From: Eledone cirrhosa
Taxonomy: Eukaryota
Length of the DNA: 64,000 nt
Direction of reading: 5' to 3'
Assembly: GCA_964016885.1 (NCBI GenBank)
Contig: OZ024743.1
Span: 362,266,001-362,330,000, forward strand
In this document: in pieces, positions 1-59,039 of the stretch
How positions within the stretch are numbered: the first letter of the stretch is position 1
Layout: each line of letters starts with the position of its first letter
Notes under the pieces: model-generated
What the model was told of the DNA's origin: nothing
Seen by the model: only the letters and a program-made list of their open reading frames with translations
The model's database searches: none
Translations under genes and position numbers: made by a program

Positions 1-1
1 A

Positions 2-544
2 ATCTAGTCGATATCTATCGGCCAGGTCAAATCGGTCGATTAACTGTTTGAGGCTGTTACACCCCCCTTTATCGGGACATGCTCCCACATAGTCCCAACG
101 TGCATCTAGGATTCCATTCCAGTCCCCCACTAAAAGCAAGGAGCGGGACGTTCCCAGAAAAGTCTCTAGACGTTTGAAGAAGTCTGGCCGCGGTGTCCCG
201 GATGGGGCATATGCGGCCACCAGCCTGAACGCACCACCTTCACTACCGTCAACGTCTAGGACCACCAGTCGACCCTCCGGGTCCAGATGTACCGTCTGTG
301 TTACGAGGCCCAGGTGTTTCCGCAGCAAAACGGCAACTCCGCCCCCACCCCCCGGTTGACAGAGAGATGCGTAGATCTCAAAGTCATCGAAGATGGGGGC
401 CAGCTGTCGCTCGCCGTGGATCCTGGACTCGCAAATGGCTACCACATCCAAACTGTGCGACCTGAGGTCGTTTAAGAGTTTGCCCTGTTTCCAGGGCATC
501 CCCAGGCCGCGTACGTTCACACATCCAACTCTTATATTGGCCAT
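2..544 (-). CDS. Tx1-like ORF2, APE endonuclease N-terminus (partial)
   Basis: Matches copy B ORF 5346-5855 (NVRG, ICES, YAP and GDWN motifs); ATG in CCAACATGG context. Confidence 0.8.
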   Translation of the reverse strand, partial: MANIRVGCVNVRGLGMPWKQGKLLNDLRSHSLDVVAICESRIHGERQLAPIFDDFEIYASLCQPGGGGGVAVLLRKHLGLVTQTVHLDPEGRLVVLDVDGSEGGAFRLVAAYAPSGTPRPDFFKRLETFLGTSRSLLLVGDWNGILDARWDYVGACPDKGGCNSLKQLIDRFDLADRYRLD

Positions 545-577
545 GTTGGTGCTGAAAAGTTAAAAGAGGAAAAGAGA

Positions 578-1894: not shown

Positions 1895-2685
1895 TTGGAC
1901 TGGTTTTCGGGTAGAATTGGAAACTGTCCTAAAAACTATCGTTTTGAGAGCAGTTTCCTTGCGAATTTCTACCGGAGAATTGATGCTGAAAGCACCATTT
2001 TTTTAAAAGGTGTTCAGCATTTGTTATGTCGAGATATATCAATTGTTCTTTCTTTTGAACTTTCTCCGCAAAGGAGATTTTTGGTTTCTTTGTGGAATCC
2101 GTATTGGTGGTGTTGTCATTATTGTTGTTATTCTTGTTGTTATTCTTGTTGTCACCGATGTTGGTATCATCCGTATTTTCCTTGGTGTTGTTGTTGTCTT
2201 TGATGCTGGTGTTATTGGCGTTGTCTTTATTTTTTTCTTTGTTGTTGTTATCATTGTTGCTTTTATCATCATTATTGGTTTTGCTGTTATTTTTGTTGTC
2301 ATTGAGCTGTTTGGTGTCATTTGTGTTGTTTGGATGTGAATTCGTTTTTTTATTTTCATTTTGTCTTTCCATCTCTATAGTATCTAGTGAAGAAGACGTT
2401 GTTGACTGCGAGCTTTGTAGTCTTACCGCCTCTCCACCGCCATTATCGTTGGACGCAGCGTTCATAACGTAATCAAAATTTTACAATATTTTTTTTTCCA
2501 AGATTCGATGGAGAAAAATTTTTTAAATGGATATTCCGCCCCTGAAGGGGCGAAAATGAGTTGACCCACCACCTGAAGGTCCAGACGGGTGGTCAAGTTA
2601 CACAATGATATAAAATTGAACTAAAAACTCACGTTTTTTCCTTACATAAATTAACGGAAACTTCTCCGCGAAGTGACACACGACT

Positions 2686-2721
2686 GATAGAGAGATAGAT
2701 AGATAGATAGATAGATAGATA
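2686..2721. repeat. (GATA)n/(TATC)n tail of copy B, abutting the 5' end of copy A
   Basis: On the minus strand it directly follows AATAAAGAAACAT. Confidence 0.9.

Positions 2722-8034: not shown

Positions 8035-8035
<1 letters not shown>
2722..8035 (-). mobile_element. Tx1-like LINE copy B, both ends present, internal RT deletion and frameshifts
   Basis: ORF1 fragments 5889-7875; APE 5346-5855; linker 4324-5100 (KSPGLDG); YADD in 4241-4498; C-terminal zinc finger PRCVRNEETVAHAFIHC in 3012-4088; AATAAA at 2728-2733 (minus). Confidence 0.9.
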
Positions 8036-8150
<115 letters not shown>

Positions 8151-11100: not shown

Positions 11101-13224
11101 TCTAGTACAGGAGTTCCCCACGTCCTCGGGGAAGTTCTGTTTGAGCATTGCGTAGGTGTCCCTTGGGACCCTAATCCTTTTTAAATGCGATTTAGTCGCC
11201 GCGTTGGTGAACATTTTCCCTTCGGTTTCCACCGAAGGGTCTTTGTCTATTGTTTGTACAAGTGTTTTGTTGTTTGTGTTGATGTATGTATACTGTTTTT
11301 GTTGTGTTGTGTTTGTTTGTTGTTCTTGTGTGTTTGCGTTTTGTAGTATGTGTTATGTTTTCGGGAGGGGTGGGTTTTTTGTTTGTGATATTTGTTCTGT
11401 TTGGGCTGGTGATTGTGTGTTTGTTGCATTTTTGTTAATGTGGTGCTTTCTTTTCTTTCTTTTTACTGGTTGAAAGGGTTCTCCCTCGTCGTCACTGGGT
11501 GACGTTGATAAGGAGTCCTCGTCTGTGTTGTTGGGGAGGGGCATATTTTGGGGTTTTGTTGTGGTTGTGGGTGCTTTTGTGTTTGTTTTAGGTGGGGAAG
11601 GGTTGGGTGGGACGGTGTCTTGTGTTGTTATTTTTTCGTGTTGTGGTTGTTGTTGTTGTTGTTGTGGTGGTGGTGGTGGTGGTGGTGGTGGTGGTGGTGG
11701 TGGTGGTGGTGGTGGTTGTGTTGTTGTTGTGTGTGGGGTGGGCAGGAGCGTCTTTTTTTTGGAGGGTGGCATTTAAAAGGGGAAGGGAGTCCTCAGGTGA
11801 CCACTTCTTGAACAGTGGTAGCATGAAGGCCGCCTGCCCTCGACAGAAATGTTTATGAAGGCAACTCCATCCAGGGACACCCGCTGCGGTATTCTTGCTA
11901 TCCGTTCTGGTCTCATTTGGACCAGAACTTCAAGGCTATTGCCGCTGAATACGCCCCCGGTGGATTCGGCTATCAAGAGGATTGTGTCCTCATCGTCTAA
12001 GAATCCCGTTAGCACCCACCAAATGCTCGCATTTGGCCTGATGCCCGAGATTCTTATCCTTTGAGTTCTTTTCCCCAAATATGTGGGGAAAAAGGTGTAT
12101 GATTCGGATACAATTGGCGATACAGAGTATTTCCGTGCCACCAATTGATCTTTCATTAGCACAGATATGCTTCCATACAGTTTCCCTTTCTGTATGAAAG
12201 CGATATCTTTCCAGGCACTACTTAGGACCACCTCAATTTTACTTTGGGATAATTGAGCCAGTTTCCTAGTTGCGGTGGAAATTGTTCTAAAAGTTAGTTC
12301 TGAGGACTGCGTCTTTTCTAATTTCTTCGAGGGAGGTAATTGTGAATTCCCCACCTTCCCCAAAAGTTACACAATTTCTTGCCTCCTTCAGCAACTCCCT
12401 GGCATTCGAGATGTCCAGTGCCCTGTAAGTCTGTGTCTCTCGGAGCGCCTATGCGAAAAAGACTCCAGTCGTGGGTCCGCTCTCTTTGGTGTTGTTATCA
12501 TTATTGTTGTTATTGTTGTTGTTGTTCTTGTTGTCACTGATGTTGATATTGTTCGTATTTTCCTTGGTGTTGGTGTTGTTGTAGTCTTTGATGTTGGTAT
12601 TATTGGTGTTGTCTTTATTTTTTGTTCTTTGTTGTTGTTGTCATTGTTGTTTTTATCATCATTATTGGTGTTGTTGTTGTTATTGTTGTTGTCATTGTAC
12701 TGTTTGGTGTCATTTGTGTCGTTTGGATTTGAATTTGTTTTTACAATTTGATTTCGTCTTTCCATCTCCATAGTGTTTTTTTCATGTGTATGTATGTTAA
12801 TAGGTTTAATTTCTGTGTTTTCATGTGAGTTAGTGTTATTTTTCTCCGCTTCGACGGTAGAAATTGTACAATTTTCGAGTAGTAACATTTTTTCCTCTTT
12901 GTTGACAGTCGTATCTATGGCGACATCCATAGTAGCAGAAGCAGATATAACGTTAATATCTGCTTCTTTCTCTCTCTTTTCTTTATTGACGTTCTCCAGC
13001 GTTCTTGTGTTGTTCAAGTTATATAGTTGGCAAAATTTGATATTTTAAAACAATTTTTAAAATAAAATGTTCGCCCCTAAAGGGGCGAAAAATGGCATTA
13101 CCACCCAGCTGACAATTCAGCTTCGAGGTTAATCTACAAAATAATATGTTTTTCCAAACAATTTGTTCTGTTTTTCGTATATAAATTTACAAAAAATCTT
13201 ACCGGCGATGTTTCACGCGTCAGA
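8151..13224 (-). mobile_element. Tx1-like LINE copy C, RT core deleted, probably chimeric
   Basis: ORF1 pieces 10864-13017 (CYHCSRSGHL); APE 10007-10876; linker 9487-9918; C-terminus 8390-9341 (CPRCVRDEETVARAFIHC). No YADD: deletion junction near 9347. Confidence 0.9.
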
Positions 13225-15798
13225 CAGAAAGATAGATAGATAACTTTCTTTTTATTTGCCACCAAGGCATCAAAGAGTGGGACAAGTACAATGGGGGGAG
13301 TTTACATAAAAAGGCGTCCTCACTAAGGAGGAGGCAATAACAAAATATAAAAATATAAAATATAAAATATAAGAAAAATAAATTGAATAACAAAATCCTC
13401 AATAGGGAGGAGGCGCCTTGGGGGGTCGCACACACCCGCGAAAAAAGTGTGCAACCCTTCTCCTCAGGAGCACAGAGAGAGGGTGCTCCCTTGATCTTTC
13501 AACTTTCTCACCTACAGTCTGGTGTAGAGTGAAGGCCCATTCACACGGGCCATTCTCGCCACTTTCACCCATCTTTCATAAAAACGGCTGGGGTGCAGTA
13601 CCTCTCTCTCCATCCTGATCCTTCTTCCGAAATGATATCGGAAGAAACGGACCAGTCGTTGGCCAGAGAGAAAGGTGTCTGACCTCAGTCCTTTCAGACG
13701 CGTCCACCATACAACCTCTTTCACCATGGCTATTACGCACAGAAACACCGCCTCTCCTTCGTTTTTGAAGAGAGGAGGCGGCTTGATCGTTACAATGGAC
13801 TCGGTGGTCAACCGGATCGGTCCCACCCCTGACAACAGTCGTTCGACATAGCCCCACAGATCGGCAATGCCCGAGCAGTGTACCAATGCGTGTGCAACGG
13901 TTTCCTCGTCGCACACGCATCTTGGACAGATCTTTTTCGGGGGGTCCCTACCCGGGCGCCCGTGTCTGTAGAGCCTTTCTTGAACGCGCAGAGCCCCTCG
14001 GTAGCACTGCCAGGCCAGGGACCTCTGGAAGTTATTCATAGGTCCCGTGCTGAATGTCCTACCGAACAGGTTGGCCAGTTCGTTTTCCTCCAATCCTAGG
14101 GCTTCTTCGAAGGCGTCGTCGCACCTGCTAACCACCAGCCCTCTATAGAATGACGAGGTGGATTCTCCACTGACAGCCGGGTCCGCCTGCCAGAGAGCCG
14201 TGAGCGCCTGGGCACACTCGGTGTGCCAGGCGACCAGTTTTCTCGGTCTTTGCTTGACCCAGGATTGCAGCTCGGTGAGCGAGACGAGTCTGGGAAAGGC
14301 TCGCCTCACAAACGGGGCCCACAACGGTTGACCGGTGAGGAATACCTGGAGGTGCCGTAGCCTTAATGCGTGTTTACGCATCATCAGCCACGGCATTCCC
14401 AGCCCTCCTTTCGAAGGGTGTTGACAGCAGATGGATCTCCTCACCATAGGAGCCCGCTTCTTCCAAAGGAATTGGAAGTGTGCGCCCTCCATTTTGGCGA
14501 GCGTTTCCCTTGGGCAAGGAACGATGGTCAGGCGGTAGTAGATGACGGACGCTATATAAGTGTTCGCCACCTCCACCTGACCTTTCAGGGACAGTTTACA
14601 CTCGGCCCACTTCTGGGTCAGTGCAAACACCCTGTTCGTTACCTCACCCCAGTTCTACTCCACCTGGAGGTCTTGTCCGAACCAGACCCCGAGCAACTTC
14701 ACCGGGCCCTCCGACCAGCGCCCGACGACGCCATCGGAGGGCATCGATTTGCCCCTCCACGTGCCGAGTTGCAGACCGATCGACTTGTCCCTGTTCAGCT
14801 TAGCCCCTGTAAACCTTTCGTACTCCTCCAGTAAGGTGCCGATCGCCCCAATTTCCGAGGCCGTCGACACCATTACTGTTACGTCATCGGCGTAGGCCGA
14901 CATCGCTTTACGCAATCCCGGTTCCAACGGGATGCCCTGCAACAACTCCAACTTCCGCAGCAGTGGCTCTAGAGTCACTACATATAGAAGGGAGCTGAGA
15001 GGGCACCCTTGTCGGATGGACCGCGCGATTTCGAAAGGCTCCGAGAAGTAGCCGTTCACCTTGACCCTAGAGTAGATGCGGCTGCTGTGCATGGCATTGA
15101 TCCAGCCCCTGAAAACGGGTCCGAACCCAGCCGCCGCTACGACCGCATCCAGGTAACCATGGTCGATCCTATCGAACGCCTTAGATTGATCCAAGTTGAT
15201 CAGGGCCCCACCAAAGCCGGGTTCGTTCCCAACCCTCTCTATGATGTATCACATGAGGTGGAGGTTGTCGTGGATGGACCTGGATGGGATAGCACATGTC
15301 TGCGCATCTCCCACCAGGTTGCCCACGACAAGTGCCAGCCTCTTTGCTAGCACCTTGGCCAAAATCTGTAACTCTGTATTTAGCAGAGTTATGGGCCTGA
15401 AATTATTTATATCGTCCCCCTTGTTCTCGTCCTTCCTCACTAACGTGACTACGCCCTTGGTCACAGAACAGGGAATTCTCCCGGTCTGTTGCCAGTTGCA
15501 GTAGACCGTCTCGAGGAGATCGGGGAACAAGTCCGGCATAGCTAGATATAGTTCGTATGGAAGACCATCGTGACTCGGGGATTTGCGTTTGCCGCATTGG
15601 CTCAGCAAGTCCTCTATCTCAGCGGCTGAAATCGGCTCCTCGCAGGACTTCGCCTCCATGTCCGAGAGACGCGGCAGGCCGTCGAGGTATGGACCGAAGC
15701 CCACTTCCCCAACCGGCTCCCCGCCCCTTCCGAACAATCTGGCAAAGTGCTTTTGAAAAGCCTCGCACATCTGCTTAGGTTCAAGGATCACCCGTCCA
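13225..15798 (-). mobile_element. Tx1-like LINE copy D, 5'-truncated, RT to 3' end with short (TATC) tail
   Basis: FRPITLLN, DQSKAFDRI, RQGCPLS, AYADD and CPRCVCDEETVAHALVHC in ORFs 15249-15791, 14655-15194 and 13512-14630. Confidence 0.9.
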
Positions 15799-15929
15799 TA
15801 TGGCGTATATATATGGCGTTGTTATTTGACGTTGTTGAAAAGAGCAGTAGCATTTGACCCGGCAATAAAAACTGGAGACAAAATTCTGTGTACCAAAAAC
15901 AAGGCACACACAGACACACACACAAGTTT

Positions 15930-22836: not shown

Positions 22837-24918
22837 GGGAATTACAAGTACAATCCATTATGGAACAGTAAAGATATGTAAAAGATTACAAAAATTCTGC
22901 ATCTATAACTGCATATACACATGTACAGATACAAAGCATATGCACATGCGCACATATAACTTAAAACATACACACATACATTAACATCCATACCTGCACA
23001 CACATGCATGCAGACATGCATACCTATCTACCAATGAGAGAGGTTGTATATCTATGAGCATTAGCGCTCCTAGCAATGTTACTAACTGCATCAGTACTAA
23101 GTGAGAGTTCTGTGAGAGGCTAAGCTTCACATAACCAGAAAGAGCACGGCTAGTTAGAAGTTGCAAGTGCAGTCCATTAATTGAAATGTTAAAATATGTA
23201 AAACATTTAACAATTCAGCATTTAATAACTGCATTTCCTCATATATATATATATACAGAAACATATGCACGTGTTCACATATAACTCAAAACATAGAGAT
23301 CCTTAAATGCAATACCAACCATACTTGCACACACAAAAACACATACAGACATGAAAACGCATTTACCTAGTTCATGTAGTCTAAATTCCAATAAAAGAGT
23401 CTTGTTTTTATATTAGTAACCGTCTCACTCTATTGGTGAAACAGTATGAAATATTAAAACCAGAAGAACATACATAAACACATACATGCATACATACAAA
23501 AACCCCAATAAAATGCAGGCATAACAGACCAGATATTATGATATGGGACAGGGAGAAGAAAACATGCACAGAAGTGGAAATTAGCTGCCCAGCAGATACC
23601 AATATAATATCAAAGATTAGTGAAAAGGAGAATATTTATGCAGAACTGATGAGAAATCTGCAGATACTCCACCCTGATTACACCTTCAGATTTATGCCTG
23701 TGATTATTGGGGCACTGGGATATGTTGGTAACTGCCTCAATACTAATCTTGAGAAGCTATGCTTCATAGGAACAGAAAGAACACAACTAGTTAGGAAACT
23801 ACAAGTACAATCCATTAACGAAACAGTAAAAATATGTAAAACATTCCAAAAATGTTGCATCTAATAACTGCATATACACATGTACAGATACAAAGCATAT
23901 ACACATGCACATATACAACTCAAAACATCCACATCCACACATACAATAACATCCATATCTACACATGCATGCATACATACATATCTACCTAGTTGATGTT
24001 GTGTAAATTCCAATGAGAGAGTCTTGTGTCTATGTTAGAAACCGACTCTCTCTATTGGTAACACTTTGTGAAATTATAAAACCAGAAGAACATACATACA
24101 TATGTCCAAAGATGTCATCGGTCATAAGCAGCTGCCCAAAGGTGTCATCGCGGTACTATCTACCTATGAGGCATGATGTAGTGGCCAAAACACTGTACAA
24201 TGCAATCCGTAGACAAGATAGCCCTGATGATAAACACATTAAAATCTACAGCAATGTGGACGACATACATATACATAATACGAAAGAGTAGTGGTGGAAT
24301 GTTCCAGTAAAAATCCCAATAAAATGCAGGCATAACAGACCAGATATTATGATATGGGACAGGGAAAAGAAGTCATGAACAGTAGTGGAAGTTAGCTGTC
24401 CAGCAGATGCCAATATAATATCAAAGATTAGCGAAAACGAGAATATTTATGCAGAACTGATGAGAAATCTGCAGATACTCCACCCTGATTACACCTTCAG
24501 ATTTATGTCTGTGATTATTGGAGCACTGGGATATGTTAGTAACTGCCTCAATACAAATCTTGAGAAGCTGGGCTTCACAGGAACAGAAAGAATACGACTA
24601 GATAGGAAATTACAAGTACAATCCATTAATGGAACAATAAAAATATGTAAAACATTCCAAAAGTGTTGCATCTACCAACTGCATATACACATGTACAGAT
24701 ACAAAGCATATGCACATGCACACATACAACTCAAAACATCCACATCCACACATACAATAACATCCCTACCTACACATGCATGCATGCAGACATGCATACA
24801 TATCTACCTAGTTGATGTTGTGTAAATTCCAATGAGAATCTTGTAACTATGTTAGAAACCGACTCTCTCTCTCTATTGGCAAAAATTTGTGAAATTATAA
24901 AACCAGAAGAACATACAT
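22837..24918 (+). mobile_element. Tandem 5'-truncated R4/Dong-like RLE non-LTR fragments (3-4 copies)
   Basis: CPK..SRYYLPMRHDVVAK, WWNVP, HNRPDIMIWD..EISCP..KENIY..PVIIGALG (RLE nuclease). Copies end in AAAACCAGAAGAACATACAT at ~23475, ~24095 and ~24915. Confidence 0.8.
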
Positions 24919-32303: not shown

Positions 32304-32533
32304 GATTTCTAGTATTGGCACAAGGCCAGTAATTTTTTTTTCTTTTTTGGGGTGGGTGGGGGGGTAGTCGATTAAGTCGACCAGTGTATTATCGGTACTT
32401 TATTTTATCGACCCCGTAAGGATGAAAGGCGAAGTTAACCTCGGCGGGATTTGAACTCAGAACGTAAAGAGACGCAACTATGCCGCGAAGCATGGTGTCT
32501 TACGCTCTACCTATTCTGCCAATCCACCGCCCT
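32304..32533 (-). mobile_element. tRNA-derived SINE with 16-bp target-site duplication
   Basis: CTAGTCTAGTTTTAAT at 32288-32303 and 32534-32549; A/B boxes and core as in the other copies. Confidence 0.85.
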
Positions 32534-32965: not shown

Positions 32966-33158
32966 GTGAATTGGCAGTCTCGGTAGAAGGCTGGACGCCA
33001 TGCTTTCTAGCATAGTTACGTCCCTTTACGTTCTGAGTTCAAATCTCGTCGAGGTTAACTTTGCCTTTCATCCTTACGGGGTCGATAAAATAAAGTACCA
33101 GTAATGTACTGGTGTAATTACTGTCCTTGTGCCAAAAGTAGAAACAATTATTATTATT
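32966..33158 (+). mobile_element. tRNA-derived SINE with (ATT)n tail
   Basis: TGGCAGTCTCGG A box, GAGTTCAAATC B box, core GCCTTTCATCCTTACGGGGTCGATAAAATAAAGTACCAG (resembles the Meta/MESC domain, from memory), tail CCTTGTGCCAAAAGTAGAAACAATTATT. Confidence 0.85.
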
Positions 33159-34714: not shown

Positions 34715-34904
34715 GGTGGATTGGCAGTATCGGTAGAGTGTCGGACGCCATGCTTTCCAGCATAGTTACGTCCCTTTACGATCTGAGTTCAAATCCCGCC
34801 GAGGTTGACTTTGCCTTTTCATCCTTACGGGGTCGATAAAATAAAGTACCAGTAATGCACTGGGTAATTGCTGGCCTTGTGCCTAAAGTAGAAACAATTA
34901 TTAT
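34715..34904 (+). mobile_element. tRNA-derived SINE within an (ATC/ATT)n tract
   Basis: GGTGGATTGGCAGTATCGG...GAGTTCAAATCC...core...GGCCTTGTGCCTAAAGTAGAAACAATTATT. Confidence 0.85.
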
Positions 34905-35234: not shown

Positions 35235-35555
35235 AATAATAATCATCATAATTGTTTCTACTTTTGGCACAAGACCAGCAATTAACCAGTGTATTACTGG
35301 TACTTTATTTTATCGACCCCGTAAGGATGTAAGGCAAAGTTAACCTCGGCGGGATTTTTTCATTACGATTAATTGTTTCTATTTTAGGCACAAGGCCAGC
35401 AAATACCCAGTGCATTACTGGTACTTTATTTTATCGACCCCGTAAGGATGATGGGCAAAGTTAACCTCGGCGGGATTTGAACTCAGAATGGCAAGGGCCG
35501 TAACTCTATGCGTCAAAGCATGGCGTCCGACCCTTTACCGATACTGCCAATCCAC
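35235..35555 (-). mobile_element. Two head-to-tail SINE copies (full 35369-35555; 5'-truncated 35235-35357)
   Basis: Reverse complement of 34715-34904; the full copy begins immediately after the Tx1 copy E tail. Confidence 0.85.
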
Positions 35556-38500
35556 AATGATTTCATTTATTGGCCACAAGGGCCGACATGTAGGGGACAA
35601 TACAAAGACACGGACAGTGGGGTTTACAATAAGGTCGAGTAAAAGTGCACAATGGCAAGACTAATTTAACAATGAAAATATAAAAATATATAAATAAACT
35701 ATGCATAAATATAACAAAATAAATTCTCCTATAGGGGGGTGGACGACTCAGGGGTGACTCAGATACCCAACCAATCCTGAACCACACAGCGCTCTTAGGG
35801 GACACGGGAGAGCACCCCTCTCCTCCTCAAATTAGCTACCCTATAGGCGCCTGGCCAGAGTAGGCCCATTCACACGGGCCATTCTCGCCACATTCATCCA
35901 CCTTTTAGTAAATGTACTAGGGAGCAGCACTTCTCTCTCCACCCTCACCTTCCTTTCCAGATAAAACTTGAAGAAGTTGATGAGGGATTGGCCGAAGAGA
36001 AAAGTGTCTGTCTTCACTCCTTTCAATCTGGTCCACCATATAACCTCTTCACTCCTTTCAATCTGGTCCACCATATAACCTCTTTCGCAACTGCCACCAG
36101 ACGGAAGAAAATTGCCTACTCTTCCTGGCCAAAGGAAGGCGGTGGGTTGATCTTCACTATGGACTCGGCCGATAGCCGGATCCGTTCTACACGCGACAAT
36201 AGCTGTTCGACCTTTAGGCAGAATATCAGGAGATGTCGCTGCCTCAGCACATGTCTGCGCATCATTAGCCACGGCACGCCCAGCCCTCCTTTTAGAGGCT
36301 GCTGGTAGCAAATGGACCGCCTCATAAACAGAACTTGTCCTCTCCACAAGAATGTGAAGAGGAGCCGTCCCAACTTGGCAAGGCGCATACGGGAGCAAGG
36401 CATGACAGTCAGGTGGTAGTAGATGACGGACGGGATATAAGCGTTTCGCCACCTTGGCGGGACCTTTCAGTGATAGCTTCCTCGCAACCCATTTCTGTGT
36501 GAGACTGCCTACCCTGCTCGTTACCTCGTGCCAATTCTTTTCCACCTGGAGGTCTAGTCCGAATCAAACCCCGAGCAACTTTACCGGTCCGTCCGTCCAG
36601 CGCCCCACGACGCTGTTGGACGGCATGAACTTTCCTCTCCAGGTGCCGAGCTGCAAGCCCACCGACTTTTCCGCGTTAAGTTTGGCTCCTGTCAACCCAT
36701 CATATTCCTTCAATAAGGTGCCGACCACCTCGATTTCCGAGGTGTCCGACACCATCACGGTGATGTCGTCCGCATAAGCCGACACAACCTTTCCACGTCC
36801 CGATTCGAGCGGGACACCCTACAACAGCTCCAGCTTACGCAGTAAAAGCTCGAGAGTAAGTACGTACAGAAGGGAAGAGAGAGGGCACCCTTGACGGCCC
36901 GTGTAAAGGAACTTTAACTTTAACAAAGCCATTAACTTTTACCACCGAGCAGGTGCAGCGATCCAGCTTCTGAAGACAGGGCCGGAGCCAGCTGCTTTGT
37001 GGACAAACACCAGATACCGATGGTCGACCCTATCGAATGCTTTCGATTGATCTAAATTGATCAGTGCCCACCGAAGCCAGGTTTACACCCTAACTACCCT
37101 CTCTATGATGAGGTTCCTTAACTACCCTCTCTATGATGTATCGCATGAGGTGGAGATTGCCGTGTATGGACCTGGCTGGGATTGCACAAGTTTGCGCCGC
37201 CCAACCAAATCCTCGACGACAAGCGCCAATCTCTTTGCTAACACCTTGGCCAAAATCTTAAACTCTGTGTTGAGCAGAGTTATGGGGCTGAAGTTGTCTA
37301 ATCTATCTCTCTTGTTCTCGTCTTTCCTTATCAGCGTCATCACTCCCCTGCTCACAGAACTGGGAATACTCCCATTGTGCTGCCTGCTGCAGTAGAGTGC
37401 TTCGAGAAGATCGGAGAACAAGTCTAGCATATTTACGTAAAGCTCGTAGGGCAGGCCATCCAAACCGGGTGATTTGCAGCCGACAAGGGCATCCTCAATT
37501 TCGGCTGAAGTAATCGGCCTTTCGCAGCGCTCAGCGTCAACCGTCGAGATGCGCGGCAAGCCGTCAAGGTAGAGGCTGATATCCGCTACTCTCTCTGACT
37601 CGCCACTCTCCCCGAACAACCGAGCAAAGTACTGGCGAAACGCCTCACACATCCACTTTGAATCGTTTATCTCGTGTCCGTCTCGGTCCGCCAAAGACCG
37701 AATTGTGGTTTTAATACCACGTTGCGCCTCCGCCACACGGGCCCATCGAACAGCTTTGGTTCCATCGTTTCTCAGCGCACGCGCCTTAGCTCTGACAATG
37801 CAACCTTCGTGTTTCGCATTTAAGAAATGGTCTAATGCCATTCTCGCCTCTAGCACGTCAGTTGCAATGCCACTACAAATAGCCTTGTCTCACTTATTAC
37901 CAGCTCCCTCTCCTTTCTATTTTTCTCTAGCGTTAGTTCTTTGCTGAATCCTATCGAAGTTACTCTAATCTCTCTTTTGAGAGCCCCCCACCATCTGTTG
38001 TTGATTATCCCTCCTGTCAATCTTTGCTTAACTAAATTGTTGACTCGGTCCTTGTAAGCCTTACGTGCCGGAAATGACATGTTCAGCTTCCAGTAACCAG
38101 GTCCTAACCTACGCATTTTATCAAGGTCGACTATACAGATCATAAATTTGTGATCTGAATAGGCGACCGTTTTAAAAAGTGGGCAGCCTAAACTATTTCT
38201 ATCTATTTTCCTAATGAAGATCCTGTCTATATACGATCTAGATGACCCCATGCGGTTGGTTCATGTCCATACTGGCGCATTGGGGAAATCTAGTCGATAC
38301 CTGTCAGACAGTTGGAACTGGCTGATTAGGTGCTTGAGGCTTTTGCACCCCACGCTCCTATCAGCTACTCCCACACAATCCCAGCGTGCGTCTAAGATGC
38401 CGTTCCAGTCCCCCGCTAACAGTAAAGGGCGAGACGTACCCAGAAAGGACTCAAGGCGCCTAAAGAAGTCCGGTCGTCCAGCCCCTGTAGGGGCGTAGAC

Positions 38501-39343
38501 GGCCAGCTGTCTAAAGGCACCACCTTTGCTAGTGCCCAATATCGAAGCCCACCAACTTAACGTCCGGGTGCCGGAAGATCGACCTTACCTCGAGATCCAG
38601 TCCTTTCCTAAACAGCACTGCCACCCCACCTCATTCCCGGCCTACTAACAGATGCGAAGATCTCATAGTCGTCGAAAATGGGAGCTAGTGCGCGCGTGTC
38701 GGAAATTCTGGTCTCGCACGGCAATCACATCCATTTCCAGCGACCTGAGGTCTTTGAGCAGGCGACCCGGCTTCCAGGGTGACTCCATGCCGCGAACATT
38801 TAAACTTCCTACTCTTAATATGGCCATGTTGGCAAAATAAAAGAGAGAGGGAAGGTTTACCTACCTTCCGGGGTTTTGTGAAGGTCGGGTGGTTCGACCT
38901 CCATGGTTGGTGGGGTTTCTTTTGGGAACCCCTTTAAAACTCTCGATGTGGGTTTCACATTCGGGGTTCACACGTCTTGAGGAAAGCTCTCCCGAATTTC
39001 TTTGAAGGAATCGAGTGACATTCGGACCAGAAGCAAATCTTCTGGCACGCAAAATGTGCTCATTTCAAAGATCTCCCCCTCTGTTTGAATGTCTTCGCTT
39101 CGTGCTAAGAGGCCCATTAGTTTATCGTTGGCCCTTCTGACAAACACGAAATTTTAACATTTTGTTGGTGTGGTTTTATTTGTTTTCGTTTTGGTGATTG
39201 TGGTGGTGATGGTTTCGGTGGTGTTGTTTCGGGTATGTCTGTGTTTGTTGTACGTATGGTGTCTGCAATTTCAGGTATTTGTGGGTTTATTTGTACTTGT
39301 GTTTGTTTAGTTTGTTTGCGTTTCGGGGATTGTGGGGGTGGTG
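35556..39343 (-). mobile_element. Tx1-like LINE copy E (5'-truncated in ORF1, degenerate ORF2)
   Basis: APE (YAPTG, GDWN), GYWKLN, KSPGLDG, FSPITLLN, AYADD and C-terminal fragments; 3' end CTTGTGGCCAATAAATGAAATCATT. Confidence 0.85.
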
Positions 39344-42300
39344 ATAATAATAATAATGGTTTCTTTATTGGCCACAAGGGCTAACACGATGAAAAACATT
39401 AAAGACGACACAGAACAGTACAGGACGATACAAAGTGGGTTTTGGTCGTGTAAACAGGTTATAACAAGATTGGACTAGAAATCAAAAAAAAACAAAAATT
39501 CATCAAAAAGGGGGAAACCTCCGAGGGTCACTCGTGGCGAAAACCACACAAAATGACCACGGCCGCCCTGACCACCAGGGCAAGCGCCCTCTCTCAGTTT
39601 TCCCACTCCTCAGTCTACAGGCGTCTACTCAGAGCGGGCCCGTTCACTCGGACCAAACTCGCCACTTTCACCCACCTTTCAACAACTTACTAGAAGACAG
39701 CACTTGTCTCTCCACCCTGATGATTTTCCTCTTCAAATGAAACTTTAAAAAGTTAATCAGATGAAAACTGCCTGCCCTTCCTCCTCTTTAAAGGAGGATG
39801 GCGGGGCTATCTCACAATGGACTTAGTCGATAACCGGATCCGTCCTACACGCGACAGCAGCTGTTCGACATAGCTCCACAAGTCAGCAATCATCGGGCAC
39901 TGAACGAGTGCGTGCAGGACGGTTTCGTCGCCCTGCGTGCATCTCGGACAGGCTCTTCTGACAGCACTCCCGTGCCTGTAGAGCTTATCCCGGGATTTCT
40001 GGAAGTTGTCCATAGGCCCCGGTCTGAATGTTCTCTTGAAGAGAGCGAACATCTGATCGTCTTCGACGCCCAGGGTCTCCCCGAGAACGTCGTCGCTCTT
40101 ACCCTCCACTAGCCCTCTATAGAACGCCAAGGTGGATGTTCCACTCGATAATAGTGCCCTGCTGGTAGAGGGCGGTGAGCGCTTGGAGATATTCCAGCTT
40201 CCAAACGCTATCCCTCGGTCTCTTCCTGATCCAGGACTGCAGCTCCGTCAAGGAGACGAGCTGGGGAAAACCGCGTCTGGCAAACAGTGACTACACCTGT
40301 TCACCGTCAAGGAAGAGCCAGAGATGTCGCAGCCTCAGCGCATGTTTGCGCACCATCAGCCACGGCATGCCTACTCCTCCACGCACGGGTGTTGACAGCA
40401 AATGGATCGTCTGACCATGGAAGCACGTCCCTTCCACAAAAAGCGGAAGAGAAGGCGCTCCATTTTGGTCAGACTTGGGCGGGGGCAATGTACGACGGTC
40501 AGGCGGTAGCAGATGACGGACGCTATGTACGCATTCGCCACCTCCGCCCGACTTTTCAGAAACAGCCTACTCGCGGCCTATTTCTAGGTGAGAGAGGACC
40601 ACCCTGCTCGTCACCTAGCTCCAGTTTTTCTCCATCTAGAGGTCCGGACCGAACCAGACCCCGAGAAATTTAACCGGTATTTCCGTCCAGCGCCCCACGA
40701 CGCTGTCGGACGGCATGGACTTGTCTCTCTAGGTGCCGAGTTGCAAGCCCACCGACTTTTCCTGGTTTATCTTTGCTCCTGTCACCGCTTCGTATTCCTT
40801 GAGAGTGGTGCCGAGTATCTGGACGTGTTTGGTGCTCGACAACACCACGGTGACGTCGTTGGCGTAGGCTGACACGGATCTCCCGCATCCCAGTTCGCGT
40901 GGGACCCTCATCGTCTCCAATTTGTCCAGTAACGGCTCGAGGGCCATTACCGATGGTAGACCCTATCAAATGCTTTAGATTGATCCAAGTTGATCAGGGC
41001 CCCACCCGTGCCAGGTTCCTTAACTACCCTCTCTATGATGTATCGCATGAGATTGAGGTTGTCGTGGATGGATCTGTTCGGAATGGCGCATATCTGCACC
41101 TCTCCCACCGGATCACCGACGACAAGCGCCAATCTCTTTGCTAATACCTTGGGCAAAATCTTAAACTCTGCGTTTAGCAGAGTTATGGGCCTGAAGTTGT
41201 CTATAACGTCCCTCTTGTTCGGGTCTTTTCTCAGCAACGCCACCGCTCCCGGCTCATAAAACTGGGAATGCTCCCGTTCTGCTTCCAATTGCAGTAGACA
41301 TCTGCCAAGAGGTCGCCTAACAAGTCTGGCATATACGCATAAAGCTCGTAGGCCAGACCATCCAAACCTCGCGATTTACCCCTCGTGCAGTCAGACATCG
41401 CTTCCGGTATTTCACCTGCTGTTATCGGCTTTTCGCAGCACTGCGCTGCGGTCGTCGATAGCCGCGGCAGTCCGTCGAGGTATGCACCGACGTCCATACT
41501 CCGGTCCGGCCCGCCGCCGCTCCCGAACAATTGAGCAAAGTTCTGTTGAAAAGCTGCACACATCTGCTCGGGTTCGAGCAACATGCACCCGCTGTGGTCA
41601 GGAAAAGACCGAATTGTGGACTTGTTGCCACGCCGCGCGTCCACCACCCGGGCCCATTGAACGACTTTCGTCCCCTTGTGTCTTAGAGCAAGCGCTCTAG
41701 CTCTGACAACGCAGCCTTCATGCTTTGCGTTGAAGAATTTGTCGAGTGCCAATCTCGCCGCAAGCACGTCGGTTACTATGCCTGTCCTAAACGCCTCTTC
41801 TAGCTTTCTAACTAGCTCTCCCTCTACTCTATTTTCCTCTATCACTACTCCTTTTCTAAACCTTATCGATTCTACTCTAATAGCCCTTTTCAGGGTAAAC
41901 CACCACCTGTTGTTGACGATCGCATCCGTCAATGCACGCTTAACTAATTCGCTAATCCGGTCTCTGTAAGCTTTGCGCGCCAGGAACGATGCGTTCAGCT
42001 TCCAGTACCCGGGCCCTTGCCTATTGAGTCTATCTAAGTCAACTTCACAGATCAAAAATTTGTGGTCTGTGTAGTCGACTACTTGAAATTGTAGACAACC
42101 CACACTAGCCTTATCTGTATACCTACAGAATACCCTATCTAAATATAATCTGGATAACCCGATGCGGTTTGCCCATGTCCACATTGGCACATTCGGATAA
42201 TCCAGTCTATAACTGTCAGACAGTTCAAATAGTCTGGGAAGTTTGTTGAGACTTTTACACCCTCCTGCCCTGTCTACTAGCCCCACATAATCCCAGCATG

Positions 42301-44184
42301 CATCTAAGATACCGTTCCAGTCGCCCACTAACACTAAAGAGCGGGACGTTCCAAGAAAGGTAATTTTTTTTAATTAGTTTTCTCAGTGTTGTTGTCTTTG
42401 TTCACGTTGTTTGTGGTGCTGCTTGTTGTATGAATTTCACTAACTCTCCTCTCAACTTATAATCCGTTGTCACACGACAGCAGACATCTTGCTGGGGAGG
42501 CGTGGATCAGCCATGTTTTTTTTTTTTTTTTTTTTCAAAAGTAAAATGTTCAAATATTGTTCAAACCCAAGAAAGGTCTCTAGAAAGGTCTTTAGCTTGA
42601 AAGCATTGCCTTGGCTGCCAGTCACGTCCAGCACCACCGACTTACCTTTTGGGTCCAGGAAGATGGCCCGTATGGCGAGATCCAAGCCTCTCCGAAAAAG
42701 CACGGCAACCCCTCCCCCCGATCCTGGACGGCTTGGAGATGCGTATACATCGTAGCCGCCGAAGATCGGTGCGAAGGCTCGTGCTGTGGAGATTCTGGTT
42801 TCGCTGATGGCCACCACATTTATGTTTAGTGACCTGAGGTCGTTGATCAGGTGACTCTGCTTCCAAGATGACCCCAGGTCACGTACATTTATACTGCCTA
42901 CTCTAAGTACGGCCATGTTGGATGAGAAACGGCGTAAGTTAGAAAGGATCACTTACCTTGATCGTGTGGTGAAGGGACAGTAGAAGCGCCCCTTTGGCTG
43001 GTCATGAGTGTTTCCAAGAGGATGTCTGTGAATATCCTCTTGGTAACCGACCCTCTGAATTATCCAACTGCGTTGGGGAATTTTTGTTTTAAAAGTTTGT
43101 AATGTTCTATTTTGATTTCAATGATGTTTATGTTTGTCGCGAGAGTTCTTGGTGTTGGTGGGGTGTAGTAGTTTTTTTTCTGTGATTTTCTGCTTTATAT
43201 GTTGTAAGAGTTCTTTATTTGCCATGTTTATGGCTGTGTACTTTTTGGGGGTAGGGGTGATTTTGTTGCTGTTTTCTTGTTACTGTTGGGTGTGTGTGTT
43301 TTGTTGTGTTTGCGATGTTGGTGTTTTTTGGTGACGCTGGTGGTGGTGTGGTTGTTGTTGTTGGTGATGCTTGTGGTGGTGATGGTGATGGTGGTGGTGT
43401 TGCTGCAAGTCTCCTTGCAGCCTTTACCCCTCTTCGTTTGCCTTCGCTTTTGGAGGGTGAAGCTAAGGGGTTTTTGTTTTTTTGTTTTTTGTGGCAGACC
43501 TTTTTCCACTTCCCTCCCACCTCATACTCCATATCGGATTCCGTGGCGTCTGGGAGGGGTATGAGCTCCACCGCTGTTGGTGGTGGTAGTGGAGCCCACT
43601 CCGGCGATTTTGCCGCCCGTGTAGCTACTGCGACTGCTGATGATGCCGCCACTGCTGTCGCTATTTTAGTTCTTAGTAGCCTTGGTATGGGTGCCACGGA
43701 CGTTTCTCTCCTATTCAATATCGAAGGGTATTCTGCCTCTGTTGCCTGCCCTGCTCTTTGTAGCAGCGGATCCGGCGTCGGAAGGAGAGGGGGGCCTTCT
43801 TCTTGGCTGTCTTCTGCGAGCAGAAGGCCCTGAGGTGACCCTACTGCCCACAGAGATAGCAATATGGGCGCCTTCACTCCACGCTTATAGGGAGCTGGAG
43901 TCCTTCTTCGAGGTCTAAGATACCTGGGATGTCCTCGATGCACTCCTGGGTAGTCTGTATTAGCATTTGCATGCCTCTTCCTGACCAGTTCTCTCTTCCC
44001 ATTCTCTGTATTTGCAATATGGTGGACTTCTCCTCGATTCCAGCCATATTATACTTTCCCCTTCACAGGGCAAAGTCCAAGGGCTTATATCCCTTACACA
44101 ACAAGAAAATTTAACAACAAATAATTATAACAGGTAAATAAAGCGACTTACTGGGAGCGAGCAAAAAAGACGTCCAAACCGACC
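39344..44184 (-). mobile_element. Tx1-like LINE copy F with (ATT)n tail, degenerate
   Basis: ORF1 remnant 42955-44110; APE from ATG at 42916; 367-aa ORF 41231-42334; DQSKAFDR; AYAND; CPRCTQGDETVLHALVQC. Confidence 0.85.
42362..42566. other. 205-bp insertion in copy F endonuclease, flanked by an 11-bp direct repeat
   Basis: CCAAGAAAGGT at 42351-42361 and 42567-42577. Confidence 0.7.
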
Positions 44185-44681
44185 AATAATAATAATAATA
44201 ATAATTGTGTCCTTTATTGGCCACAATGACCGACAAATGGGGGAGAATACAATAGTCGGGGACAGTGGGGGTTTTACACAAAAATTGAGTAAACAATATA
44301 TATAACAATATAACAATAAACAAGAAAAATACAACAATGAAATTCCCCAATAAGGGAATGGCGCCCCTCTTCTCAAATTAACCAGCCTACAGGTGCATGC
44401 TCAGAGTAGGCTCATTCACACGGGGCATTCTCGTCACATTCACCCACCTTTTAGAAAATGTACTAGGGGGCAGCACTTCTCTCTCCACTCTCACCTTCTT
44501 TCCAAGTTAAATTTGAAAAAGTTGATGAGGAATTGGCCAAAGACAAAAGTGTCTGTCTTCAGTCCTTTCAACATGGTCCACCACACAATCTCTTTTACTA
44601 CAGCCACCAGACAGAGGAAAACTGCCTGCCCTTCCCGACCAAAAGAATGCGGTGGGATGATCTTTACTATGGACTAGGTCG
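44185..44681 (-). mobile_element. Tx1-like LINE copy G, 3' fragment with (ATT)n tail
   Basis: Homologous to the ORF2 C-terminus of the other copies; ends TTGTGGCCAATAAAGGACACAATTATTATT. Confidence 0.8.
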
Positions 44682-45779
44682 ATATATATATATCAGTTGC
44701 TTAACGCCGATGAAAAAATGAAACCACAGGGATAAACACCAGCGTGCTGAACCTGACAGATTGGGAGAAACTTTAACTTATCTTATAATATATATATTGT
44801 CTCCACCATTGCTGATGTTTCTTGTCGCTACATAATTTCATCTGGGACTTCAGGTATTAAAATATCAAAATATTTCTTCAATACATTTACATTCACGGCA
44901 TGTTGATCTCTCGAATATTTGATCGGACTTTAAAAACATGCGGACATTTTGAGCGCTAATTTATTGCAGTATTCAGTCGTATCTTTTTAAGGGGAAGATC
45001 ATTTGGCATTATGACCGTATATTGATATAGCTCTCTAATGTATATAACACGACATATCGTTTCCGTCATTGCCCTGGGATAGAATCTGGATTCTTTCAAC
45101 TTCTCTCGGTATCTCCTCTATTACACTGAGCCTAACCTCTTGTATTAGCATTGCATAACTTCGAGTTACGCCGTTAGTTTAACTCTATGCGATGCCCTAA
45201 CGTTGGAACTAACATTATGAAACTGTTAGTTTAACAATATGTGGTGACCATGATTGCAGACATGACTAAATACCTAAGAAATCCTCTTTGCAATCATAAG
45301 ACCTTGGATTCGATATCACTGCATGAGATCGTTGAAAGTGTCTTTACCATACTGCCGTGTTGATCCAAGTCTTGAGAGTGAAATGAGGTGGACGCAAACT
45401 GTATGAAAGTTCATCGAATGGAGGAAGATTAGCAGGTAGTTTGTGGACATCTGGTATTGTTGATAGGCAAAGATGTTTATTCATATATTTTCTAGGCTGA
45501 AATGTCGCAGACTCGACTAAAAATACTTATATGCATACTCAGAAAGAATACTCAATCATCACTAGCTCAATCATATGATTCCAGACAGTGTGCAAGAACA
45601 CTCTGGCGTGCAAAACCCATCGGACACAACGGAAAAAGTGTTACTCCGAAAATTAACGAGAGAGGCGCATTAAAATAGCCATTCCAGCTCATGAGTTCAA
45701 CACCACCCCCAATAGCTTTGAGTTGGGAAATGGTATAGCGACCAAGAATGCCGGAAGTAGCTACTGCTAGAGGTTAAAC

Positions 45780-54455: not shown

Positions 54456-54510
54456 ACCAGTAATACACTGGATTAATTGCTGGCCTTGTGCCTAAAGTAG
54501 AAACAATTAT
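54456..54510 (+). mobile_element. SINE 3' fragment
   Basis: ACCAGTAATACACTGGATTAATTGCTGGCCTTGTGCCTAAAGTAGAAACAATTAT. Confidence 0.75.
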
Positions 54511-57406: not shown

Positions 57407-57571
57407 AGGGAATAACTGACTTAATTTCCTGTCCACATTCGCCACCCACCATTCAGAGAAAAAATTATGATCTGTGGAGTTTTTAATGAAACTACAGGAT
57501 CGGTTGTTTGTTCTCCTGTAGAGTTCCTTTCAATATAATTATCGTTTTTATCATTGTTTAATTATTGTTAA

Positions 57572-58999
57572 TGTATGTCACAATATGTAAAATTATTGTT
57601 ATTCTTATAGAATATAGCACTCTATATTGTTTTCATACAATAGTGTTATTGTTATTGTATGTCACAATATGTAAAATTATTGTTATTCTTATAGAATATA
57701 GCACTCTATATTGTTTTCATACTATAGTGTTATTGTTATTGTATGTCACAATGTGTAAAATCATTGTTATTCTTATAGAATATAGCACTGTATATTGTTT
57801 TCATACTATAGTGTTATTGTTATTGTATGTCACAATATGTAAAATTATTGTTATTCTTATAGAATATAGTACTCTATATTGTTTTCATACTATAGTGTTA
57901 TTGTTATTGTATGTCACAATGTGTAAAATTATTGTTATTCTTATAGAATATAGCACTGTATATTGTTTTCATACTATAGTATTATTGTTATTGTATGTGA
58001 CAATATGTAAAACAATTGTTATTCTTATAGAATATAGCACTGTATATTGTTTTCATACTATAGTGTTATTGTTATTGTATGTCACAATATGTAAAACAAT
58101 TGTTATTCTTATTGAATATAGCACTGTATATTGTTTTCATACTATAGTGTTATTGTTATTGTATGTCACAATGTGTAAAATTATTGTTATTCTTATAGAA
58201 TATAGCACTCTATATTGTTTTCATACAATAGTGTTATTGTTATTGTATGTCACAATATGTAAAATTATTGTTATTCTTATAGAATATAGCACTGTATATT
58301 GTTTTCATACTATAGTGTTATTGTTATTGTATGTCACAATATGTAAAATTATTGTTATTCTTATAGAATATAGCACTCTATATTGTTTTCATACTATAGT
58401 GTTATTGTTATTGTATGTGACAATATGTAAAATTATTGTTATTCTTATAGAATATAGCACTGTATATTGTTTTCATACTATAGTATTATTGTTATTGTAT
58501 GTCACAATATGTAAAATTATTGTTATTCTTATAGAATATAGCACTGTATATTGTTTTCATACTATAGTGTTATTGTTATTGTATGTGACAATATGTAAAA
58601 TTATTGTTATTCTTATAGAATATAGCACTCTATATTGTTTTCATACTATAGTGTTATTGTTATTGTATGTGACAATATGTAAAATTATTGTTATTCTTAT
58701 AGAATATAGCACTCTATATTGTTTTCATACTATAGTGTTATTGTTATTGTATGTCACAATATGTAAAATTATTGTTATTCTTATAGAATATAGCACTCTA
58801 TATTGTTTTCATACTATAGTGTTATTGTTATTGTATGTGACAATATGTAAAATTATTGTTATTCTTATAGAATATAGCACTCTATATTGTTTTCATACTA
58901 TAGTGTTATTGTTATTGTATGTGACAATATGTAAAATTATTGTTATTCTTATAGAATATAGCACTCTATATTGTTTTCATACTATAGTGTTATTGTTAT
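57572..58999. repeat. 84-bp minisatellite, ~17 copies
   Basis: Unit GTATGTCACAATATGTAAAATTATTGTTATTCTTATAGAATATAGCACTCTATATTGTTTTCATACTATAGTGTTATTGTTATT; 28-aa periodicity in the ORF track. Confidence 0.95.
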
Positions 59000-59039
59000 T
59001 GATATTGTACATTTCACTGTATAATATTATTGTTATATT

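Follow-up and report, generated by a model that had tools for sequence, protein, structure and literature searches.

A shared 3′ end points to Tx1-type LINEs as the likely partners of an abundant SINE in Eledone cirrhosa

In a stretch of 64 kb from Eledone cirrhosa (referred to as the window, meaning the whole stretch of DNA that was analyzed) three LINEs, designated G, F and E, and two SINEs are lined up in the order G>F>E>SINE>SINE. This arrangement raises the question of which LINE provides the copying machinery for the SINE, and whether the tail of the SINE, which a sequence-only reading had described as a mimic of the Tx1 LINE 3′ end, identifies the partner. The co-oriented order claimed in that reading is real, with every element of the chain lying on the minus strand. 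G (44206..44685, minus strand) is indeed a member of the chain, yet only as a ~480-nt 3′ fragment comprising the end of ORF2 and the 3′ UTR; its nearest family is the older E-type subfamily. It is followed by (ATT)7 (44185-44205) and by F (39358..44184, minus strand), which begins at the 5′ end of its family and contains broken ORF1 and ORF2 frames, the latter with APE, RT and zf-RVT and an internal deletion in the RT near 40950. After an ATT repeat of 14 nt (39344-39357) comes E (35559..39343, minus strand), a 5′-truncated copy consisting of a broken ORF2 (38839-35865, minus strand) and the 3′ UTR. A single ATT (35556-35558) places the first SINE (SINE1; 35374..35555, minus strand) 3 nt behind the end of E. 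This short-form copy covers consensus positions 5-186 with 94% identity to the consensus. The full SINE proposed to start on the E tail does adjoin E, but it lacks its first 4 nt and its boundary is 35374, not 35369. The second SINE (SINE2; 35253..35357, minus strand), also of the short form, does follow as had been suggested, after a spacer of 16 nt, but it is 5′-truncated (positions 82-186; 96%) and runs into a degenerate ATT tail (35235-35252, minus strand). The 3′ ends previously quoted for F and E were exact, whereas the quoted SINE end was that of the consensus and not the actual end of SINE1 (...CCTAAAATAGAAACAATTAATCG) or SINE2 (...GGTCTTGTGCCAAAAGTAGAAACAATTATGATG). No target duplication of its own was found for SINE1 or, by reading the sequence, for SINE2.

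All three LINEs of the chain belong to the L1 group and have a Tx1-type anatomy. LINE ORF2 yielded matches to RVT_1 (E = 2e-26) and zf-RVT (E = 1e-8) as well as a weak match to the endonuclease domain Exo_endo_phos (E = 1.6e-4), and its best relative among solved structures was human L1 ORF2p (E = 1.5e-42, vs 9e-22 for R2). ORF1 of the Tx1 clade carries a CCHC zinc knuckle, and zf-CCHC was found in all three ORF1 pieces, although weakly and under the Pfam cut-off (E = 0.0035-0.0048). The Tx1-type families insert, depending on the family, into (ATT)n or (TATC)n and form head-to-tail arrays. In a quick tree, which contains no named Tx1 or L1 reference, these LINE families formed a single clade (SH-aLRT 99), with CR1, RTE and R4 outside it, and the homologs retrieved bore no informative names; the label Tx1 is used here on the basis of anatomy and targeting rather than of a tree with named references.

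The SINE exists in a short form of 186 nt and an older, long form of 215 nt. It ranks among the most abundant short mobile elements of the 3.0-Gb genome; this abundance, also part of the earlier claim, is evident from 125,741 exact tail matches. A motif scan of the consensus located an A box at position 11 and a B box at position 78 and no T4 run; mapped to SINE1, the A-box-like motif lies at 35538..35549 and the B-box-like motif at 35473..35484 (both minus strand), where they may form an internal Pol III promoter. The two boxes, the lack of a T4 terminator inside the element, a length within 100-600 nt, target duplications and a high copy number are features of the SINE2 class. The attribute 'tRNA-derived' agrees with these boxes but received nothing from ARAGORN (0 genes) or Rfam (no tRNA match to E = 5), and the SINE head gave no significant match to the sole tRNA gene in the sampled loci; a tRNA origin is thus suggested by the A and B boxes only. 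The middle part of the SINE presumably resembles the Deu/Nin domain. OK, OR1 and OR2 are reportedly octopod SINEs, described in a paper from 1994.

The ~30 terminal nucleotides are common to the SINE and the Tx1-type LINEs, in register with the ATT tail, so that the mimicry itself could be confirmed. The terminal 30 nt of F (39358..39387, minus strand) contain a predicted hairpin, GCC-CTTGT-GGC, with AATAAA and GAAACC, and those of E (35559..35588, minus strand) the predicted hairpin GGCC-CTTGT-GGCC with AATAAA and GAAATC. The corresponding tail of SINE1 (35374..35403, minus strand) reads GGC-CTTGT-GCC and GAAACA and has lost AATAAA. A matrix of 30 columns, built from 12 Tx1 ends only and with the repeat tail left out, found 80 sites of at least 14 bits in 1 Mb (1,994,200 positions), namely 64 SINE tails, 14 Tx1 ends and 2 others. 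The two SINE consensus forms scored 16.2 and 14.6. All 13 non-Tx1 ends (CR1, RTE, R4/Dong, I) were negative (-15 to -30), and for these clades the comparison that had been proposed as a check did not refute the Tx1 reading. When aligned to the long SINE form with the ends anchored, 7 Tx1 ends scored 18-28 and the 13 others 1-19, with R4b at 19; CR1b reached 21 against the short form. The longest Tx1 match to the long form, 37-38 nt, belonged to the E type. Among the 20 ends compared, from ~2 Mb of 3 Gb, the shared terminal sequence is specific to one LINE lineage; this catalog is incomplete, as L2, Hero and RTEX ends and the diversity of Nimb are absent from it. The match is short for such pairs (~30 nt vs ~50-100 nt in published ones), and ungapped it amounts to 17 of 22 nt between SINE and F. 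The exact SINE stem was not seen in any LINE (0 matches, vs 2,181 for the Tx1 stem), and the 320 tails of SINE type counted in 2 Mb included none from a LINE. As TATC-targeting Tx1 families carry the same 3′ end, the tail alone does not single out a family.

In the hairpin alignment 54 of 64 cells (84%) were paired, and three of the four pairs showed two-sided changes, including a swap from C-G to G-C between Tx1 and SINE. The covariation score was reached by none of 500 shuffles, although with only four pairs and 16 related rows this covariation is weak. Stability did not exceed that of shuffles (z from -1.3 to +1.1 for six sequences with a stem of 3-4 bp) and folding energy was for this reason dropped as support for the hairpin. 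The best fold of SINE1 is a competing structure.

Target duplications were detected for 47 of 132 SINE copies, compared to 4 of 300 mismatched controls. The non-repeat duplications (n = 71) had a median of 17 nt (12-20 nt) and the target Y|ATTAT, and most SINE targets contained 1-2 ATT units. Older E-type Tx1 copies exhibited non-repeat duplications of 15-18 nt starting with ATTAT in 4 of 21 cases, a count limited to copies with their 5′ end inside the locus. At one locus (L286) Tx1 and SINE each duplicated the same ~16-nt site. The likeness to the SINE in target and duplication is therefore found for the older E-type Tx1. F, F2 and H reside mostly in longer (ATT)n arrays than the SINE targets, which makes their duplication length unreadable. 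A common target logo, as anticipated previously, hence holds for the E-type subfamily but not for F, F2 and H with their preference for longer ATT arrays.

Nesting goes both ways, with SINEs in Tx1 tails and Tx1 in SINE tails. An exact SINE head was present 14-44 nt behind 161 of 2,181 E-type ends, with 1.4 expected. SINEs stood behind 41 of 89 Tx1 tails vs 3 of 54 CR1a tails and, in an age-matched set, behind 14 of 29 vs 3 of 28 (p = 0.003); this control is an age match to Tx1 E only, because the 'older' CR1a is a second fairly young subfamily (4.0%). Tx1 was in turn found behind 17 of 342 SINE tails. Nearest-neighbor divergence amounted to 5.2% for the short and 14.8% for the long SINE form and, with LINE ages taken from search-selected copies, to 3.0% for E, 6.1% for F and 9.6% for old E. 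The age profiles overlap and the nesting is mutual, in line with the earlier reading. Its notion of a SINE mobilized by Tx1 withstood those of the proposed refuting comparisons that were made here and is supported; it is from these patterns that we infer mobilization.

The same 30-base end, the ATTAT sites and the duplications suggest that Tx1-type LINEs likely supply the SINE copying machinery. We thus have good confidence that the SINE, its tail matching the ends of ATT-targeting L1/Tx1-type LINEs, depends for its copying on the ORF2 protein of these LINEs acting in trans, with the E-type lineage as the most likely source; a SINE-LINE tail partnership with a Tx1 partner is likely. An ancestral Pol III SINE would have acquired its 3′ end from a Tx1 transcript; the long form retains the longest match, and a deletion of ~29 nt upstream of the shared part would have turned it into the short form. 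ORF2p is predicted to recognize the small hairpin with the loop CUUGU, where reverse transcription would start, and this recognition should be stringent instead of relying on poly(A). Going by the footprints, new copies attach at Y|ATTAT, presumably after a nick by the APE endonuclease, with the AUUAU end of the RNA probably pairing with the primer; a second nick 12-20 nt off would produce the observed duplication. Each insertion leaves new ATTAT ends that are re-used, so that LINEs and SINEs stack head to tail in one orientation, the arrangement seen in the window. A more far-reaching reading, which we put forward tentatively as possible rather than probable, is that an animal Tx1 lineage reads its own RNA stringently via a 3′ hairpin and drove a SINE expansion that ranks among the largest in an octopod genome. 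The shared 30-nt end would act as a loading signal when RNA and, when DNA, would mark a favored target of more than ATT alone; SINE and LINE would therefore seed each other's landing sites, giving rise to self-extending chains.

The true partner could instead be an unsampled LINE, either of another clade or from a low-copy L1-group family, with the Tx1 match being an older or sister tail. The 20 ends of the catalog, from ~2 Mb of 3 Gb, the exact SINE stem occurring in no LINE found and a looser target choice of the SINE compared with F, F2 and H would fit this idea. Still, it appears unlikely, as older E-type Tx1 already provides the same target, polarity and duplication length and SINEs prefer Tx1 over age-matched CR1a tails. 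This excess over CR1a is otherwise without explanation if the chains did not arise mainly by co-insertion, in which the Tx1 reverse transcriptase copies SINE RNA and then jumps to the 3′ end of its own RNA, leaving a Tx1>SINE chimera within one duplication. The partner would then still be Tx1. Spacers of at most 8 nt at 13 of 50 Tx1>SINE junctions, including E>SINE1 in the window, and a locus with a single 18-nt duplication around the pair (L307, read by eye) point in this direction. Many SINEs behind Tx1 tails nevertheless own a duplication with shared irregularities (L263, L093, L285), and short or absent duplications are about equally common in SINEs elsewhere (4 of 25 behind SINE tails), which renders this origin distinctly improbable for most chains; template-switch chimeras are not needed as their chief source and may hold for a minority.

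Mobilization by the abundant young CR1, with the ATT tail of CR1a or the hairpin-like stretch of CR1b as signal and the Tx1 likeness as chance or relic, is very improbable. In its favor, CR1a is highly abundant, its 945-aa ORFs are intact and it ends in (ATT)n, the CR1b stretch attains the score of 21 given above, and SINE partners usually belong to CR1 or L2 (PMC3747384, Table 1). Yet CR1a has no similarity to the SINE tail (scores of 2 and 6; -17 in the matrix) and shows a duplication in just 1 of 23 copies, a pattern which largely refutes this explanation, and since young CR1a has an (ATT)n tail too, such a tail is not diagnostic by itself. CR1b was rejected for its different tail repeat, its (TA)n target and its matrix score of -24.7. 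Among the remaining candidates, RTE (GAT tail), BovB-like and I-like (AAC tail) elements gave no match, and neither did R4/Dong, which has TAA or CATA tails and the opposite polarity in ATT arrays.

Borrowed 3′ ends with a stem-loop are also known from UnaSINE1/UnaL2 and from bivalve SINEs with CR1 or L2 tails (PMC3747384, Table 1; PMC4824008). Unlike in such classical pairs, the partner clade here is likely Tx1. Table 1 of PMC3747384 contains CR1, L2, RTE, I, Tad1, R4, RandI, Vingi, Crack, Rex1 and two L1-clade LINEs as partners, but no Tx1. L1-tailed SINEs make up only three of the 58 pairs surveyed there, all from plants or algae, and animal L1-group LINEs are held to be relaxed poly(A) readers (PMC3472496; PMC3747384). 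The stringent L1-clade pairs are LINE1-1_ZM with ZmSINE2/3 in maize and L1-1_CR with SINEX-3_CR in Chlamydomonas (PMC3472496; PMC3747384, Table 1). As in these pairs, a conserved 3′ end of an L1-group LINE and a predicted hairpin with putative compensatory changes are shared with a SINE of presumed tRNA type; in contrast to them, the LINE described here is of an animal, microsatellite-targeting Tx1 type, the match is ~30 instead of ~50 nt, the tail is (ATT)n, and LINE and SINE have a sequence target in common. Tx1 mobilization of a SINE was likewise inferred from a shared target, with tandem same-site insertions, for crocodilian SINEU/Tx1-Mar (PMC4494074). In SINEU the heads are of snRNA and the tails of poly(A) type, whereas the present SINE has an A/B-box head, a shared tail and far more copies, and the account of SINEU-1 reports no LINE with the same 3′ end (PMC4494074). 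The fish families Kibi and Koshi are microsatellite-specific Tx1 elements that also insert into simple repeats (PMC4494074), but the repeats hit here are (ATT)n and (TATC)n, with the target also used by a SINE.

In octopus, tRNA-Deu and tRNA-CORE are similarly abundant SINEs, the active LINEs comprise L1-Tx1, CR1, RTE and Dong-R4, and the SINE descriptions as such name no partner LINE (PMC8967140; PMC13282606); in O. vulgaris, 11.6% of the genome consists of SINEs (PMC13282606). While the general mechanism of SINE-LINE tail sharing is already known, no description of a SINE-Tx1 tail pairing was found in the literature searched. A tail-sharing Tx1 partner, if true, would mean that stringent recognition also occurs in an L1-group lineage of an animal, and it would name the engine of a major share of the octopod SINE expansion. 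It would also offer a compact, testable system, in which a 30-nt RNA signal steers an APE-type retrotransposon to ATT repeats, with TATC-directed sister families for comparison.

The window as a whole is rich in these ends, with 6 LINE-end motifs (0.09 expected) and 7 SINE-end motifs (0.03 expected). Outside the chain it contains a copy of the long, older SINE form with the extra ~29-nt segment ahead of the tail (32306..32531, minus strand), two short-form copies on the opposite strand (34715..34896 and 32966..33146, plus strand) and a further nearby SINE copy at 54456-54505, also on the strand opposite to the chain.

Five elements follow one another on the minus strand of the window, in the order and common orientation that the sequence-only reading had described: a 480-nt fragment of the LINE G (44206 to ~44685), the LINEs F (39358–44184) and E (35559–39343), and two SINE copies, SINE1 (35374–35555) and SINE2 (35253–35357, half length). 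ATT repeats link the neighbours. SINE1 indeed stands directly behind E, but it had been taken for a full element at 35369–35555 and is missing its first 4 nt. No target-site duplication of its own is visible for SINE1 or SINE2. In the window, the motifs ending the elements occur far over chance (LINE end: 6 versus 0.09; SINE end: 7 versus 0.03).

The SINE family was sampled over 1 Mb, taken as 100 stretches of 10 kb at even spacing; these yielded 205 matches, 132 of them with a complete 3′ end. These comprise a short form (186 nt, 80 copies) and a long form (215 nt, 52 copies) with ~29 additional nt ahead of the tail; nearest-neighbour divergence, 14.8% for the long and 5.2% for the short form, makes the long form the older of the two. 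Across the 3.0-Gb genome, a single 30-nt tail pattern has 125,741 exact matches, in agreement with the proposed abundance. The proposed tRNA origin fits the A and B boxes of the head, which lacks a T4 run, but no tRNA was detected in it. The middle part bears a possible resemblance to the Deu/Nin domain. Insertions of the tail only (~35–45 nt), some flanked by duplications, were seen at four sampled loci (L118, L208, L020 and L179), as expected for reverse transcription beginning at the tail.

Near-intact relatives of the chain LINEs (20 loci) are ~6 kb long. Their ORF1 has a weak CCHC match, and ORF2 carries APE, RT and zf-RVT, with human L1 ORF2p as top solved relative and a LINE ORF2 homologue in Argonauta hians (68% identity). 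In a quick tree that held no named references, all sampled families grouped together, separate from CR1, RTE and R4, as a single clade; they are called Tx1-type from anatomy and targeting, not from a reference tree. These LINEs are arranged in head-to-tail arrays, families F, F2, H, E and G ending in (ATT)n and A/B and C in (TATC)n. A second such array (1–15900, minus strand; C, B, A and a fourth member; ends at 2728, 8157 and 13251) has the predicted terminal hairpin and AATAAA of the chain LINEs, but its tails and targets are (TATC)n; its members are sister families which switched the microsatellite target and retained the 3′ signal. Another Tx1-type end (L105:8947-9024) is followed by neither ATT nor TATC but by a C/T-rich sequence, and possibly represents a third target class.

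That the SINE tail mimics a Tx1 3′ end was borne out in both directions. Twenty LINE ends were catalogued (seven Tx1-type, three CR1b-type, one CR1a, three RTE, one BovB-like, four R4/Dong-like, one I-like; clades assigned by Pfam domains and element anatomy). In end-anchored alignments to the long SINE form, Tx1 ends scored 18–28 and the remaining ends 1–19. The top score, 28 over 37–38 nt, belonged to E and was reached by 0/150 shuffles and 0/83 other ATT-flanking sequences. Aligned to the short form, Tx1 ends reached 13–23 and CR1b 21, all remaining ends no more than 11. In reverse, a 30-column matrix was built from the 12 Tx1 rows of an alignment whose four SINE rows were present while aligning but excluded from the matrix. 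Among 1,994,200 positions, 80 sites reached at least 14 bits: 64 SINE tails, 14 Tx1 ends and two others. All 13 non-Tx1 LINE ends scored below −15. The chance rate of an in-register site is ~1 in 100,000; as SINE copies are not independent, the search counts as one test.

Tx1 ends carry a conserved loop, usually CTTGT, inside a 3–4-bp stem (GCC/GGC, GGCC/GGCC or AACC/GGTT), followed by AATAAA. The SINE tail retains the loop within a GGC/GCC stem, a two-sided C-G to G-C change relative to Tx1, and has lost AATAAA. In the same alignment, pairing is found in 84% of 64 cells with two-sided changes in three of four pairs, and the covariation score was matched by 0/500 shuffles and was lower in slid controls. 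Folding energies were no better than those of shuffles, and SINE1 folds preferentially into another structure; the common hairpin is a prediction.

Target duplications flank 47 of the 132 SINE copies, compared with 4 of 300 mismatched pairs. Of 260 copies with at least 88% identity, 91 have a duplication, 71 of these non-repeat with a median of 17 nt. The base before ATTAT is C in 51% and T in 38% of 49 sites outside other tails (insertion point Y|ATTAT). An older E-type subfamily shows four clear non-repeat duplications of 15–18 nt, with ATTAT as first bases (21 of 30 loci having a callable 5′ end), and at L286 the identical site was duplicated by one Tx1 and one long SINE. The proposed common target thus holds for old E, but F, F2 and H lie mostly within longer ATT arrays, SINE tails included, where duplication length is unreadable; readable cases measure 11–19 nt. 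Of 23 copies of CR1a, which is ATT-tailed as well, one has a duplication; CR1b and RTE insert into (TA)n, and R4 lies in the opposite orientation within ATT arrays. These reversed R4/Dong-like LINEs have (TAA)n tails, enter Tx1 and SINE tails as well, and leave ~22–24-nt repeat duplications (L056, L097, L106, L200, L033 and others).

A SINE follows within 60 nt of the tail in 12/30 F, 14/29 E and 15/30 old E copies, versus 3/28 and 0/26 for two CR1a subfamilies (p = 8e-8 when pooled and 0.003 between the age-matched groups). Genome-wide, the exact SINE head decamer lies 14–44 nt behind 161 of 2,181 exact E-type ends (1.4 expected). Tx1 tails may be favoured over CR1a tails through their upstream context or through occasional co-insertion, both being candidate explanations; spacers at Tx1–SINE junctions measure at most 8 nt in 13 of 50 cases. 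The converse, Tx1 behind a SINE tail, was found in 17/342 cases, a rate inflated because loci came partly from Tx1 searches. Divergence is 3.0–9.6% for Tx1, with copies selected by search score, and 5.2% (short form) and 14.8% (long form) for the SINE; together with the mutual nesting this indicates overlapping activity.

SINE and Tx1 hence have sequence, footprint and nesting in common, and with age as a further independent line the association is real. That an ATT-targeting Tx1 mobilises the SINE agrees with these data, but a LINE with the exact SINE stem gave no matches and was absent among 320 tails; accordingly, either the tail drifted from present Tx1 ends or the donor is unsampled. We consider it probable that the SINE acquired its tail from the 3′ end of a Tx1 and is moved to Y|ATTAT by a Tx1 ORF2p, probably of E type. 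This protein would bind the hairpin end and prime at Y|ATTAT, leaving a 12–20-nt duplication, and re-use of fresh ATTAT ends would produce chains in one orientation.

This is likely a known type of SINE–LINE partnership with an unusual partner. The accessible text of the literature searched (including PMC4758252, PMC5786205, PMC4824008, PMC5804259, PMC8967140, PMC13282606, PMC3531059, PMC5753468 and PMC10294476) contains no report of a SINE with a Tx1 3′ tail and none of a partner LINE for octopus SINEs, although Repbase, Dfam, SINEBase or the octopus papers of 1994 and 2015 may already name the SINE or describe its tail. Within the same limits, Tx1 partners are rarely reported, as had been stated: Tx1 is missing from the SINE–LINE pair table of PMC3747384, L1-tailed SINEs number only three among 58 (PMC3472496), and mobilisation by Tx1 is reported for SINEU alone, where the target provides the link, the tails are poly(A) and a LINE with the SINEU-1 end was not found (PMC4494074). 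The repeat landscape resembles that of octopus as far as described in the accessible parts of PMC8967140 and PMC13282606; taken with the Argonauta hians homologue, this points to an octopod cephalopod as the probable source.

Several other repeats were observed. An R4/Dong-like family forms four tandem 3′ fragments with (CATA)n tails (22840–24911, plus strand), another chain targeted to a microsatellite. A very young, abundant CR1-like family (L061-L090, L309-L338; intact 945-aa ORF, copies ~99% identical) has an (ATT)n tail, almost no target duplications and a second subfamily at ~4% divergence. Another young CR1-like family (L211-L240; 1045-aa ORF, 9-nt repeat at the end) inserts nearly exclusively into (TA)n arrays. 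In an abundant RTE-like LINE that ends in (GAT)n (L145:6805-9999, L138, L149), a PHD finger directly follows the RT domain, and L118:2733-4188 holds adjoining Pif1 helicase and ubiquitin-hydrolase fragments, Helitron-like. In the window, an 84-nt tandem repeat (57562–59001; 17 copies, 97% match) continues into a degenerate 34-nt array up to 60843. Two adjacent inverted-repeat pairs (61340–61589/62202–62451 and 62486–62739/63079–63333; ~250 nt, 98–99% identical, non-repetitive-looking) are read as foldback elements or as products of recent, local inverted duplication.
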